Source of the DNA: a virus
Taxonomy: Duplodnaviria > Heunggongvirae > Uroviricota > Caudoviricetes
Virus record (IMG/VR): IMGVR_UViG_2690316273_000016
DNA: 7,929 bases
Direction: 5' to 3' (one strand)
Below the pieces are notes generated by a model. That model saw only the letters and a program-made list of their open reading frames with translations. It did no database searches and was not told the origin of the DNA. Position 1 is the first letter of the stretch. Every line of letters begins with the position of its first letter. Made by a program: the position numbers and the translations under genes. This document shows, one piece after another, positions 1,290 to 7,929 of this stretch.

Positions 1290-1449
1290 GTATTAATATG
1301 AATTTAAATGATTTTATCCTGATTGTTCCTCTTTCTGTAAACCATACGGACTCAACATTTGCCAACTCTGAATCATCCTGACACAATCAGACACAACCCA
1401 ACCCAATAACCCACCCAATGACTCTTTAAGAAACAACAAAGGGGGAATT

Positions 1450-3433: not shown

Positions 3434-3721
3434 ATGAAAAAGAAAAATTCTGGCTTTACTGCCAGCGGCCCCGCTCGGCCTGAAATCCGCCCCGGCGATA
3501 TTTTCCGGGATAACTATGGCGGCACGGTAACGATAAAAGGCGTGGCAGAACGGCGCATCACTTACCGCCGTGATGGCTACGAATATGACTGCGTGATGCC
3601 TGTTTATCAGTTCCGGCGTGATTTCACGCTGGTGGGCCATCGTAAAGCCGTAAATCAGAAACGTGCAGCAAGTCATATCCGCAAAATTCGTGAAATGCTG
3701 GTCGCAGGGGGTAAAAAATGA
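3434..3721 (+). CDS. Hypothetical basic protein (95 aa)
   Basis: ATG 3434 with GGAG 9 nt upstream; stop TGA 3719-3721 overlaps the primase ATG at 3718 (ATGA). Protein-like composition, basic C-terminus. Confidence 0.6.
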   Translation: MKKKNSGFTASGPARPEIRPGDIFRDNYGGTVTIKGVAERRITYRRDGYEYDCVMPVYQFRRDFTLVGHRKAVNQKRAASHIRKIREMLVAGGKK

Positions 3722-5532
3722 AACTGGCACCGAACGTAAAACAGCAGTCACGCGGCATAAAACACAAAGAAACAGAAGTCATTATTTTTGCGGGTAGTGA
3801 TGCCTGGTCACACGCAAAACAATGGCAGGAACATGACGCGCGTATGGCCGGAGATAATGAGCCTCCTGTGTGGCTTGGGGAGCAGCAGTTATCCGAACTG
3901 GATAAGCTGCAAATTGTGCCGGAAGGCAGAAAATCCGTGCGCATATTCAGGGCCGGATATCTTGCGCCAGTAATGATAAAGGCGATTGGTCAGAAGCTGG
4001 CGGCGGCAGGCGTACAGGATGCAAATTTTTATCCTGAGGGTATGCACGGTCAGGAGGTGCAGAACTGGCGCGGATATCTGGCCCGTGAGCGCCAGAATCT
4101 TTCTGATGGTCTGGTGATTCAGCTTCCTGTTAAGAAAAAAACAGAAGACAGCGCCGCACCACTGGCGCTTAACCAGATGGGAGCAAGCCAGCGCGGCGAA
4201 GTTCTCCTGGCACATTATGGCGGTGAACTGGCGATTCATGCCGACTCTGACACTGTTCACCATTACAACGGCGTTGTATGGGAGCCGATTCAGGATAAAG
4301 AGTTACAGCGTGCTATGGCGCAGATTTTCATTGATGCGGAGATCAGCTATTCGCAGAACGCCATTAAATCGGCGGTCGATACCATGAAGTTAAGTTTGCC
4401 TGTAATGGGGAATACAGCCCGTAACCTGATTGGATTCAGTAACGGGGTATTTGATACCAGAACAGGTAATTTTCGGGAGCATAACAAAAACGACTGGTTG
4501 TTAATTGCCAGTGAATTACCTTTCAGCCCACCAGCAGAGGGGGAAACGCTGGCAACACATGCGCCGAATTTCTGGAAGTGGTTACGCTGCTCGGTGGCAG
4601 AGAATGACCGCAAGACGGATCGCGTGCTGGCTGCATTATTCATGGTGCTGGCGAACCGGTACGACTGGCAGTTATTCATTGAGGTAACAGGTCCAGGGGG
4701 AAGTGGTAAAAGCGTGATGGCGGAGATTTGCACTATGCTGGCGGGTAAGGCCAACACAGTATCGGCAAGCATGAAGGCGCTGGAAGATGCAAGGGAACGC
4801 GCGTTAGTGGTTGGCTTTTCGCTGATTATCATGCCGGATATGACCCGCTACGCTGGTGATGGCGCAGGAATTAAGGCCATTACAGGCGGTGACAAGGTGG
4901 CAATCGACCCGAAGCATAAAGCCCCCTACTCAACACGCATTCAGGCGGTCGTGCTGGCGGTGAACAATAACGCCATGTCATTCAGTGACCGCAGCGGGGG
5001 GATCTCACGTCGTCGGGTGATATTCAATTTTTCGGAGGTTGTACCGGAGAACGAGCGCGACCCCATGCTGGCAGAAAAAATAGAAGGAGAGCTGGCGGTT
5101 GTGATTCGCCATCTGCTTACTCGTTTTTCTGACCAGGACGAAGCTAAACGCCTGCTGTATGAGCAGCAGAAATCAGAAGAAGCTCTGGTGATAAAACGCG
5201 AGGGCGATTCGCTGGTGGACTTCTGTGGCTATCTCATGTCGTCGGTAATGTGTGATGGTCTGTTAGTGGGTAATGCCGAAATTATTCCGTTCAGTCCGCG
5301 CAGGTATCTTTATCACGCCTATCTGGCATATATGAGGGCACACGGATTCGGTAAACCTGTAACACTGACGCGCTTCGGTAAAGATATGCCGGGGGCAATG
5401 GCGGAATATGGCAGGGAGTATATAAAACGGAAAACGAAGCACGGTTTGCGTTCAAATGTGACACTGACAGAGGATTCAGAAGACTGTATGCCATCATGTG
5501 CATCGGTCACAAATGACGACAGCAAAAATTAA
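3718..5532 (+). CDS. P4-family phage/plasmid primase C-terminal domain protein (D5-like SF3 NTPase/helicase); element replication initiator
   Basis: 604-aa ORF. Walker A GPGGSGKS (…FIEVTGPGGSGKSVMAEI…). Flanking blocks (NGVFDTRTGNFREH…, …ITGGDKVAIDPKHKAPYS…, …RRRVIFNFSEVVPENERDPMLAEKI…) match the conserved layout of P4-family primase C-terminal / D5_N-type proteins. SD GGGGG precedes the start. Confidence 0.88.
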   Translation: MKLAPNVKQQSRGIKHKETEVIIFAGSDAWSHAKQWQEHDARMAGDNEPPVWLGEQQLSELDKLQIVPEGRKSVRIFRAGYLAPVMIKAIGQKLAAAGVQDANFYPEGMHGQEVQNWRGYLARERQNLSDGLVIQLPVKKKTEDSAAPLALNQMGASQRGEVLLAHYGGELAIHADSDTVHHYNGVVWEPIQDKELQRAMAQIFIDAEISYSQNAIKSAVDTMKLSLPVMGNTARNLIGFSNGVFDTRTGNFREHNKNDWLLIASELPFSPPAEGETLATHAPNFWKWLRCSVAENDRKTDRVLAALFMVLANRYDWQLFIEVTGPGGSGKSVMAEICTMLAGKANTVSASMKALEDARERALVVGFSLIIMPDMTRYAGDGAGIKAITGGDKVAIDPKHKAPYSTRIQAVVLAVNNNAMSFSDRSGGISRRRVIFNFSEVVPENERDPMLAEKIEGELAVVIRHLLTRFSDQDEAKRLLYEQQKSEEALVIKREGDSLVDFCGYLMSSVMCDGLLVGNAEIIPFSPRRYLYHAYLAYMRAHGFGKPVTLTRFGKDMPGAMAEYGREYIKRKTKHGLRSNVTLTEDSEDCMPSCASVTNDDSKN

Positions 5533-5544
5533 ACTTATGGAATA

Positions 5545-5775
5545 ACTGTTCACCACTGTTCACCCTGTTATAAATATCTTTTATATCAGTACATTATAGG
5601 GTGAACAGTTATTTGTGAACTGTTCACCAAACTATTCACTGTTCACCTTTTTGATTATTTATTGAGCTTTAAGGGTGAACAGTGGTGAACAGTTGGTGAA
5701 TAGTTTTTGTGAAACTGTTCACCCCTTAACATTATGAATAAAAAGGGAAAATCTCAAAAGGTGAACAGGTGAAGG
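5545..5775. repeat. Iteron array in both orientations (CTGTTCACC / GGTGAACAG) with AT-rich spacers; putative replication origin
   Basis: Forward TGTTCACC at 5547-5554, 5557-5564 (two tandem 10-bp ACTGTTCACC units), 5621-5628, 5640-5647, 5716-5723, plus variant CTATTCACT at 5632-5640. Reverse GGTGAACAG at 5600-5608, 5674-5682, 5684-5692, 5760-5768, variant GGTGAATAG at 5695-5703, half-site GTGAAC at 5615-5620. Lies directly 3' of the primase gene. Confidence 0.6.
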
Positions 5776-6523: not shown

Positions 6524-7054
6524 ATGACAACGCTGACCATTAACCGGAAGCCGAAAGGCATTTACGGCACGCCGCAGAAAACGACGCAGGCGGCGCAAGA
6601 GCAGGATAAAACCACATCGGCGCATAAAGTGATACCCGGCAATCAGAACGCACAGCAGAAGCCCACAGGGGCGACACCGTGGCAGCATATGACCAAAAGG
6701 CAGCGCAAAAACCGCCGACGCGTTAACCGCCTCACTGAGATGTGGCCTGACTTATTCAGCCATAAAGCACCGAAGCCGCTTAAGGTGGGGATATTCGACG
6801 ACCTGATGCAGGATATCGCCGTCAGGGGGCTGGCATTCGGGCCGGGGGTATTACGTGCGACGCTGGCATCCTATGCGCAGTCTCCGCGCTATTACCGCGC
6901 CCTGATAGCTGGTGGCGCACGTTACGATCTGAAAGGCCAGCCATGTGGGGAAGTGACACCACAGGAACAGCAGGAGGCAGAAACACGGCTGATGGTGCTG
7001 AATGAGAAGCACAAGCGCCAGCGCCGGGCAGCAAAGGGGGATACATGCCAGTGA
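6524..7054 (+). CDS. FinO/ProQ-domain protein (putative RNA chaperone)
   Basis: 176 aa. Basic, low-complexity N-terminal half, then a block MWPDLFSHKAPKPLKVGIFDDLMQDIAVRGLAFGPGVLRATLASYAQSPRYYRALIAGGARYDLKGQPCGEVTPQEQQEAE that aligns by eye with the F-plasmid FinO core (WWPGLF…GIRDVLLEDVAQR…[40 protein letters not shown]). Stop overlaps the next ATG. Confidence 0.8.
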   Translation: MTTLTINRKPKGIYGTPQKTTQAAQEQDKTTSAHKVIPGNQNAQQKPTGATPWQHMTKRQRKNRRRVNRLTEMWPDLFSHKAPKPLKVGIFDDLMQDIAVRGLAFGPGVLRATLASYAQSPRYYRALIAGGARYDLKGQPCGEVTPQEQQEAETRLMVLNEKHKRQRRAAKGDTCQ

Positions 7055-7293: not shown

Positions 7294-7302
7294 AGCGATA
7301 AA

Positions 7303-7329
7303 GGCCCGGATTTTTTCCGGGCCTTTTTT
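7303..7329 (+). terminator. Rho-independent terminator closing the accessory operon
   Basis: Stem GGCCCGGA (7303-7310) / TCCGGGCC (7316-7323), loop ttttt, then TTTTTT (7324-7329), ten nt after the stop of the last ORF. Confidence 0.75.
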
Positions 7330-7347
7330 CAGGTTTTGTAAATTATT

Positions 7348-7377
7348 TGTTCGTGGTTGTTCCAGGTTGTTCGGTGA
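7348..7377. repeat. Three tandem 10-bp units TTGTTC-N4 (ttgttcgtgg / ttgttccagg / ttgttcggtg), inverted copy of the 1121-1170 array
   Basis: Read directly; its reverse complement (caccgaacaacctggaacaaccacgaacaa) matches 1148-1166. Sits just upstream of a candidate -35 at 7390. Confidence 0.5.
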
Positions 7378-7389
7378 TTCTGGCTGATG

Positions 7390-7417
7390 TTTACATACTG
7401 ATTTTTATGTATATGTT
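7390..7417 (+). promoter_or_regulatory. Candidate sigma70-like promoter for the capsid operon
   Basis: -35 TTTACA (7390-7395), 16-bp spacer, -10 TATGTT (7412-7417). Predicts a leader of about 140 nt before the ATG at 7567. Weak, sequence-only. Confidence 0.3.
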
Positions 7418-7566: not shown

Positions 7567-7929
7567 ATGAAGAAATTAATCGAACTCCGCCAGCAAAAAA
7601 CCGCCCTGAAAAACCAGATGCGATCCCTGCTGGAAAAAGCCGACAGTGAAAACCGCAGCCTGAACGATGACGAAGGCAAACAGTTTGATGAACTGCGTGC
7701 AAAAGCCGATTCCCTCGACACAGAAATTTCCCGCCTCGAGTCTGTGGCTGATGAAGAACGTAACCAGCCTGGTGTTCCCGTCGAAGATAAAATCACCAAA
7801 AATGAGCTACGCTCTTACATTCTGACCGGGGAAACCCGCAACCTGTCCGGCAGTGTTCCGGCTGATGGTGGTTATACGGTTATCCCGGAACTGAACAGAG
7901 AAATTATGCGTCAGCTTTCTGATGAGTCG
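7567..7929 (+). CDS. HK97-family major capsid protein, N-terminal 121 aa (3'-partial, runs off the window)
   Basis: Not in the ORF track (no stop inside the window). ATG at 7567, open in frame to 7929. Translation: a charged coiled-coil-like N-terminus (MKKLIELRQQKTALKNQMRSLLEKADSENRSLNDDEGKQFDELRAKADSLDTEISRLES…) followed by …PADGGYTVIPELNREIMRQLSDES, matching the characteristic GGYLVP-E---I--L motif near the start of HK97-fold capsid proteins. Confidence 0.7.
   Translation, partial: MKKLIELRQQKTALKNQMRSLLEKADSENRSLNDDEGKQFDELRAKADSLDTEISRLESVADEERNQPGVPVEDKITKNELRSYILTGETRNLSGSVPADGGYTVIPELNREIMRQLSDES

Follow-up and report, generated by a model that had tools for sequence, protein, structure and literature searches.

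A predicted alpA promoter and leader with candidate operator units in an Escherichia coli phage-inducible chromosomal island

The sequence directly in front of alpA in a 7,929-nt stretch of viral DNA (IMG/VR record IMGVR_UViG_2690316273_000016; the whole stretch is called the window below) is rich in A and C, which raises the question of whether it carries binding sites for a regulator, a signal for translation, or neither. The original prediction was that positions 1381–1449 hold units phased at 10 bp that share an ACAA core with an array further upstream, and that these units are either additional sites for the protein that binds the array, with possible autoregulation of alpA, or a C/A-rich translational enhancer. 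The reading that we favor, to which we give a probability of roughly 0.55, is that this stretch is the alpA promoter together with its leader, that the first two units (U1 and U2) are weak AlpA operators, and that the rest is filler.

The island, its relatives and the alpA promoter

The window is the left part of a capsid-carrying E. coli phage-inducible chromosomal island (PICI), and in the matching genome record the capsid, protease, portal and terminase genes come after the SSB and ProQ/FinO-family genes. The genes needed for orientation are as follows:

1–1074: int
1450–1638, + strand: alpA, 62 aa with a GTG start that matches the RefSeq annotation; Pfam Phage_AlpA
3718–5532: P4-alpha-like primase gene
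6524–7054: gene for a ProQ/FinO-family RNA-binding protein, adjoining the SSB gene

AlpA scored 66 bits against Pfam PF05930 (Phage_AlpA; cut-off 21) and was 46% identical to P4 Vis. Strain E200139 was 100% identical to window bases 1075–1700 and carries the element inserted between roxA and phoQ. Of 5,426 complete E. coli genomes, 876 contained the int-alpA spacer, usually at 80–90% identity, and at the O157 locus, which occupies the roxA|phoQ site as well, it was 82–88% identical to that of the window. When species-representative genomes were searched with the spacer, a single close relative was returned, in Shigella, and the spacer had no nucleotide match in the phage database. E. coli genomes, IMG/VR and metagenomes together supplied approximately 130 related loci, which gave 22 distinct promoter-leader variants; conservation of the upstream region was counted over 77 distinct upstream regions.

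Elsewhere in the island, 1691–2812 holds a 373-aa open reading frame where the closest genome record has a pseudogene, a minus-strand YlcI/YnfO gene and an Icd-like gene, and the 80-bp shift in coordinates from alpA to the primase gene between window and record indicates an indel relative to strain E200139 in that zone. PICIs are said to have immunity RNAs around the zone of the Icd-like gene, and near the start of that gene as annotated in relatives we observed a weak minus-strand Rfam match to the SymR antitoxin RNA (2536–2608; 32.8 bits against a gathering score of 61; E = 0.003). Directly 3′ of the primase gene lies an AT-rich region (5573–5753) with many TGTTCACC/GGTGAACAG iterons in both orientations, which also gave spurious microRNA matches in Rfam; since the iterons have the same sequence as the P4 “ori type 1 repeats,” this is presumably the replication origin of the island.

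The elements that we assign to the alpA promoter, its surroundings and the translation start are these:

1261–1289, + strand: hairpin with a 12-bp stem (AAAGGCATAAAA/TTTTATGCCTTT), conserved, between int and the alpA promoter
1359–1364, + strand: −35 hexamer TTGCCA, found by consensus scan and invariant in 22/22 distinct variants
1382–1387, + strand: −10 hexamer CACAAT (AACAAT in other alleles), extended by a TG at 1379–1380
1420–1434, + strand: conserved leader block GACTCTTTAAGAAAC, nearly invariant in the 77 distinct upstream regions, with variable flanks
1441–1452, + strand: Shine-Dalgarno sequence (SD) GGGGG at 1441–1445, a 4-nt spacer and the GTG start at 1450

The combination TTGCCA-17-CACAAT matched the consensus at 9 of 12 positions and was the sole sigma-70-like site in 1000–1750. 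Every one of the 22 variants kept TTGCCA, a spacing of exactly 17 nt and CACAAT or AACAAT, with spacer and leader sequences that differed by allele type, and this promoter was also the single prediction common to three diverged alleles (O157, KY176 and TW10590). This conservation of the sigma-70 elements points to 1381–1449 as the alpA core promoter and 5′ untranslated leader, with transcription probably starting at approximately 1393–1395, within U2. The first of the units originally described thus coincides with the −10 hexamer, and the description of the whole stretch as a leader was partly wrong, because 1381–1392 would be promoter DNA that is not transcribed. On the minus strand, 1300–1450 contained no promoter- or terminator-like site and only a 48-aa open reading frame without support.

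We also considered a second promoter, in which U1-U2 would replace the −35 element and TTTAAG would serve as the −10, and rejected it, since the distance from units to block ranges over 15–25 nt in the variants read and such a promoter would have no fixed architecture. In the TW10590-type allele (L009, 781–810), U1 and U3 together form a second promoter-like site, CTGACA-18-CACAAT, which implies that turnover of the units can create or destroy tandem promoters.

Further upstream, a 9-nt element at 1333–1341 (TTCTGTAAA), approximately −61 to −53 from the predicted alpA start, was invariant in all alleles, and is a candidate for the site at which a helper-phage or host factor induces alpA. An A-run and a short T-run border the hairpin at 1261–1289, which in the KY176 allele scored as a terminator on the + strand; one allele has a change after which the bases pair only on the + strand, as G-U. 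Probably this hairpin terminates int transcription and insulates alpA. Right behind int, 1092–1107 is a perfect 16-bp palindrome (CAGTATGCGCATACTG) that one clade conserves and the other has replaced.

Repeat units in the promoter and leader

The bases on which the original prediction rested read as quoted, with acacaatcag / acacaaccca / acccaataac / ccacccaatg beginning at 1381 and aaacaacaaa (1431–1440) abutting the SD. The richness in A and C was likewise borne out: the A+C fraction over 1381–1440 was 0.83, which ranked first among 15,740 sixty-nt windows on both strands, with 21 C against 3 G, and the 29 nt of 1391–1419 are free of G, tying for the longest G-free run on the + strand of the window. 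The 10-bp phasing held in part. GACACAA occurs exactly twice at that spacing, at 1380 and 1390, but the remaining units fall out of step, with CCCAA repeating at 5 and 12 nt. Identity at lag 10 over 1381–1420 was 0.50, which is not significant for the composition (p = 0.10; p = 0.66 for any lag of 3–15), the strongest self-identity was at lag 12, and Tandem Repeats Finder reported a period-12 repeat at 1395–1419 (AACCCAACCCAAT), not one of period 10. The units of the stretch, together with the array upstream, are as follows:

1120–1169, + strand: upstream array of five 10-bp units GnAACAAYnn, approximately −274 to −225 from the alpA start
1380–1389, + strand: U1 (GACACAATCA), overlapping the −10 (approximately −14 to −5), GnAACAAY match
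1390–1399, + strand: U2 (GACACAACCC), over the predicted start, GnAACAAY match
1395–1419, + strand: CCCAA / ACCCAAT simple repeats (units 3–4 of the original description) in the 5′ UTR, slippage-prone and not motif-like
1430–1439, + strand: GAAACAACAA, a motif match in window-type alleles only, with two ACA triplets beside the SD

In the upstream array, the AACAA core was at least 97% conserved over the 77 distinct upstream regions, and the flanking positions varied. Its copy number was 5–6 depending on the allele, and the second clade had a differently built array with more units. The array lies immediately 3′ of the int stop codon, and approximately 225–275 bp is an odd distance for an activator site.

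Using a weight matrix built from the array units, we obtained scores of 8.1 at 1380, 6.7 at 1390 and 10.8 at 1430, compared with −0.7 at 1400 and −9.4 at 1410. The shared ACAA core was thus recovered in the first two units and at 1430–1439, but not in the units at 1400 and 1410. For comparison with shuffled sequence, we left the array decamer identical to U1 out of the matrix, and with this rebuilt matrix the in-phase pair at 1380/1390 was reached by 0.5–0.8% of composition-matched shuffles. The window contained five in-phase pairs in total, and the four besides U1-U2 were all in arrays. A decamer identical to U1 (GACACAATCA) also occurs inside the upstream array of the 2011C-type allele.

Across alleles the units behaved differently. 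U1 scored 4.7–11.3 in every allele, a constancy confounded by the fact that its core is the −10 hexamer. U2 scored 5.0–7.8 in the window, O157 and KY176 types and fell to −0.4 and −4.2 in the commonest alleles, O26 and TW10590, respectively; in the UTAK allele it was lost altogether. The CCCAA units had negative matrix scores in every allele, and outside window-type alleles the unit at 1430 read GAAACGAAAG (score 0.3) or GAAATATCAA instead, so that neither the CCCAA units nor aaacaacaaa can be upheld as sites of the array-binding protein. Of the additional sites that had been proposed for that protein, and of the autoregulation of alpA through them, U1 and U2 are what is left, as they match GnAACAAY beyond chance.

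It could be argued that even these two need no regulator, and that the locus is a plain promoter and leader in which the units are residue of tandem duplication and slippage and RNA polymerase is the sole binder of 1380–1449. Copy number and length vary freely (1–4 units, 1–3 copies of CCCAA, a leader of 42–62 nt) with alpA intact, U2–U4 have decayed in many alleles, the 10-bp periodicity is not significant, and −10 function by itself explains the conservation of U1. Against this, the in-phase match of U1-U2 is improbable from composition alone (p ~0.005–0.008), and outside this pair the motif family is restricted to arrays, which lie at regulatory or attachment positions. Moreover, since PalpA responds to AlpA, a site must exist somewhere in the int-alpA spacer. 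We regard the plain promoter as a rather unlikely account of the units.

The remainder of the stretch is leader. In the window it runs from approximately 1394 to 1449 (~55 nt) and ends GGGGG-AATT-GTG; among alleles the distance from the −10 to the start codon was 42, 50–52, 57 or 61–62 nt, and the leaders differ by insertion or deletion of 5, 10 or 20 nt at the repeat units. The A+C fraction of the variable part was 0.69–0.92 in most alleles (0.55 in KY176 and 0.50 in UTAK). Folding of 88 nt gave a minimum free energy of −11.5 kcal/mol with z = 0.01, and a second z-score of −0.24, indicating no significant structure, and an Rfam search of 1075–1449 with E up to 1 returned no match. We rejected sequestration of the SD by a 9-nt perfect complement at 1542–1550, because the SD side changes without compensation in other alleles and the complementarity is likely due to chance.

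The leader has retained its composition but not its sequence, and the simplest reading is accordingly that the CCCAA units and aaacaacaaa serve as filler that keeps it unpaired. They are probably compositional in nature, generated by slippage and variable among alleles, and their A/C richness would keep a suboptimal ribosome-binding site (GTG start, 4-nt spacer) free of pairing. Most of the A/C-rich repeat is evolutionarily unstable, which makes a role as a specific site unlikely. The conserved block within the leader has a CTTTAAG core resembling three P4 “ori type 2” decamers (GCTTTAAGTG and similar) upstream of vis. We rejected a P4-like CTTTAAG decamer as the AlpA site, given that CTTTAAR occurs 6 times in the island, against an expectation of 5.2, and so shows no enrichment.

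A more active role for the leader was the second half of the original prediction, namely that its A/C richness acts as an ACA-motif or C/A-rich enhancer of translation, to which one may add possible silencing by the small RNA GcvB. ACA motifs upstream of the SD enhance translation and are GcvB targets (PMC3879156), and the consensus target of GcvB R1 is CACAACA (PMC4104026). Consistent with this idea, nearly all alleles retain an A+C fraction of 0.69–0.92 despite turnover of sequence, the leader is unstructured, the initiation region is weak and, in the window allele, two ACA triplets abut the SD. However, duplex energies of K-12 GcvB R1 with nine alleles were no better than those of composition-matched shuffles (p 0.09–0.93), on which basis GcvB targeting was rejected; the commonest alleles, which read GAAACGAAAG, lack the ACA motifs beside the SD, and the KY176 and UTAK leaders are not A/C-rich. 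Taken whole, this alternative is improbable. Its enhancer part is plausible and compatible with the promoter-leader-operator explanation that we favor, and only the GcvB part is disfavored.

GnAACAAY arrays in the island and their candidate binder

If U1 and U2 belong to a motif family, the positions of the other members bear on what binds them. Besides the array behind int, we located the following:

7344–7373, − strand: second array of three GnAACAAY units, inverted, with a 10-bp period and a 17-mer in common with 1150–1166
222–241, 275–304 and 14946–14965 of the full island (L138): attP-arm GnAACAAY arrays, upstream of int and near the right end
320–345 and 14981–15006 of L138: doubled 13-mer CGGTGTAGTTAATGGTGTAGTTAATT on each attP arm, approximately 90 and 140 bp from the junction

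The second array lies right behind a strong intrinsic terminator (7300–7329) and 16 bp upstream of a promoter-like site, TTTACA-16-TATGTT (7390–7417), which precedes the capsid operon (ATG at 7567). The region thus looks like an activator-dependent late promoter. Beside this array, at 7394–7401, we again found CATACTGA from the palindrome region at 1092–1107. At the ends of the island, comparison with K-12 placed the insertion junctions at approximately 188 and 15080 of L138, with a core of about GGACATATTT, and the attP-arm arrays fall within the inserted DNA on both arms of the reconstructed attP when set against the empty roxA-phoQ spacer of K-12. The O157 island, which has the same int-alpA module and different cargo, showed the same array layout.

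Recombination directionality factors (RDFs), among them lambda Xis, 186 Apl and P2 Cox, bind cooperatively and in head-to-tail fashion to direct repeats spaced by one helical turn, and Apl and Cox bind at att sites and promoters alike (PMC7498355). PICI induction depends on AlpA, which also activates the promoter of its own gene, and alpA is turned on by helper phages (PMC6092414, PMC11773190). In the island, U1 and U2 are 10 bp apart, the arrays have a 10-bp period, the motif is present at the attachment site, and there is a gene for a small winged-helix protein of the RDF type. From this repeat layout, the class of AlpA, the adjacency of int and the autoactivation, we infer that GnAACAAY may be the AlpA operator.

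The integrase of the island is another candidate binder, for which the GnAACAAY units, U1 and U2 included, would be arm-type sites. The arrays lie on both attP arms, the usual position of integrase arm sites, and the integrase carries an Arm-DNA-bind_3 domain. P4 would offer a precedent, in that Int and Vis both reportedly regulate its int promoter, to go by the title of the 2006 paper by Piazzolla et al. Three observations count against this. Each attP arm also bears a distinct doubled 13-mer, placed like the P4 arm repeats and the doubled motif of HE-PICIs, and this is the stronger candidate for the arm sites of the integrase, leaving the decamer arrays to some other protein; a transcription factor better explains arrays that lie 1.3 kb from the core, over PalpA and ahead of the capsid operon; and head-to-tail arrays of 3–6 units at 10 bp are the typical layout of recombination directionality factors. 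We consider assignment of the units to the integrase doubtful, and a shade less probable than the enhancer.

Two further proposals for the promoter-leader region are highly improbable. In one, U2 would be a −10-like element (approximately −2 to +4) that pauses sigma-70 RNA polymerase for loading of an antiterminator such as a helper Q; its position resembles that of CACGAT at −1 to +5, which is needed for loading of Pseudomonas aeruginosa AlpA (PMC9371919), and helper phages do induce alpA, but U2 of the window reads CACAAC and lacks the critical final T (CACAAT in O157 alleles), the element is degenerate in many alleles, no terminator was found in the leader, diverse helpers with unrelated Q proteins all induce, and the DNA-contact residues of P. 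aeruginosa AlpA extend to position 142, compared with 62 aa here. In the other, the C-rich, G-poor leader would be a Rho loading (rut) site that keeps alpA silent, as its base counts and 29-nt G-free run might suggest, but the C richness is allele-specific (the variable leader of the O157 type is 0.69 A+C, G included) and only ~55 nt of leader precede the ribosome-binding site.

Under the reading that U1 and U2 are weak AlpA operators over the −10/+1 region, AlpA, a small winged-helix protein of the Xis/Vis type, would assemble head-to-tail on GnAACAAY repeats and fill the strong five-unit array at 1120–1169 first. At higher AlpA levels the weaker U1 and U2 (1380–1399, approximately −14 to +6) would also be filled, and their occupancy would cap or tune alpA synthesis. 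AlpA would have further sites of action on the arms of the attachment site and ahead of the capsid operon.

Several findings speak against this model. A site at −10/+1 predicts repression, whereas the published data describe activation of PalpA by AlpA, and an array lies just upstream of int, yet no effect of AlpA on the int promoter was seen (PMC6092414). In addition, U2 is degenerate in the commonest alleles, and the phase between array and promoter is not conserved in one clade. On the last point, we rejected the idea that the upstream array is helically phased with the promoter units or loops to them, because the phase from array to U1 was 0 mod 10 in one clade and 1, 2, 3, 4 or 9 in the other.

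In a wider proposal, the GnAACAAY decamers are the AlpA operator of Gram-negative PICIs and link excision, the promoter of alpA itself and the capsid/packaging operon. We hold this tentatively, with the odds somewhat against it. If it is true, U1 and U2 are the autoregulatory end of an AlpA circuit that takes in the attP arms, the five-unit array and the capsid operon. This would matter because AlpA is the switch that helper phages flip to mobilize PICI satellites. Our literature search found no described alpA promoter elements, start site, AlpA operator or helper inducer in E. coli PICIs; what is new here is the map of the GnAACAAY motif, which is a practical lead. From the analysis come a defined core promoter, a predicted start and a candidate operator motif whose copies are mapped, and the element that responds to the inducer can now be sought in the conserved portions of the 375-bp spacer.

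Comparison with known systems

Among published Gram-negative PICIs, the order int then alpA is the same as at PalpA of EcCICFT073, EcCIEDL933 and EcCIMP1, and int and alpA of the closely related EcCIEDL933 are described as identical to those of EcCICFT073. PalpA of EcCICFT073 is autoactivated by AlpA and induced by helper phages (PMC6092414, PMC11773190); compared with the published PalpA, the promoter elements given here are predictions.

The P4 late promoter PLL is likewise helper-responsive and lies directly upstream of an AlpA homologue, vis. P4 also has decamer direct repeats (the “ori type 2 repeats”) upstream of vis, and the island in turn has the P4-type iterons TGTTCACC, but the repeat sequences differ, with CTTTAAG decamers in P4 and GnAACAAY here. 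A TGT-N12-ACA dyad defines the P2/P4 late promoters, and on reading the sequence we found no such activator dyad at −55 of the alpA promoter. The doubled 13-mer is placed like the doublets of the P4 “attP arm sequence repeat,” and it resembles a doubled motif reported as unique to HE-PICIs.

Like the GcvB targets yifK, dppA and oppA, the window has an A/C-rich unstructured stretch right upstream of the SD and a near-consensus CACAAC; unlike them, it has no excess complementarity to GcvB R1, and the ACA motifs close to its SD lack conservation from allele to allele. The AlpA of P. aeruginosa, which is a Q-like antiterminator, is much larger and has its name in common with the island protein.

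The closest parallel is to 186 Apl, P2 Cox, lambda Xis and P4 Vis. As in those systems, the gene for a small winged-helix protein lies next to int, and the candidate repeats are one turn apart, come in 2–6 units, and occur at the att site and at promoters, including the protein’s own. Unlike in those systems, the main array is unusually far (~225–275 bp) from the start, and a search of the P4 genome found no GnAACAAY arrays, so that homology to Vis gives no direct evidence on sites and its footprints are not transferable. By analogy with the other factors, the units may belong to the class of RDF operators, and the region is ordinary in kind, consisting of a promoter with a short leader and the probable operators of a regulator of the excisionase type.
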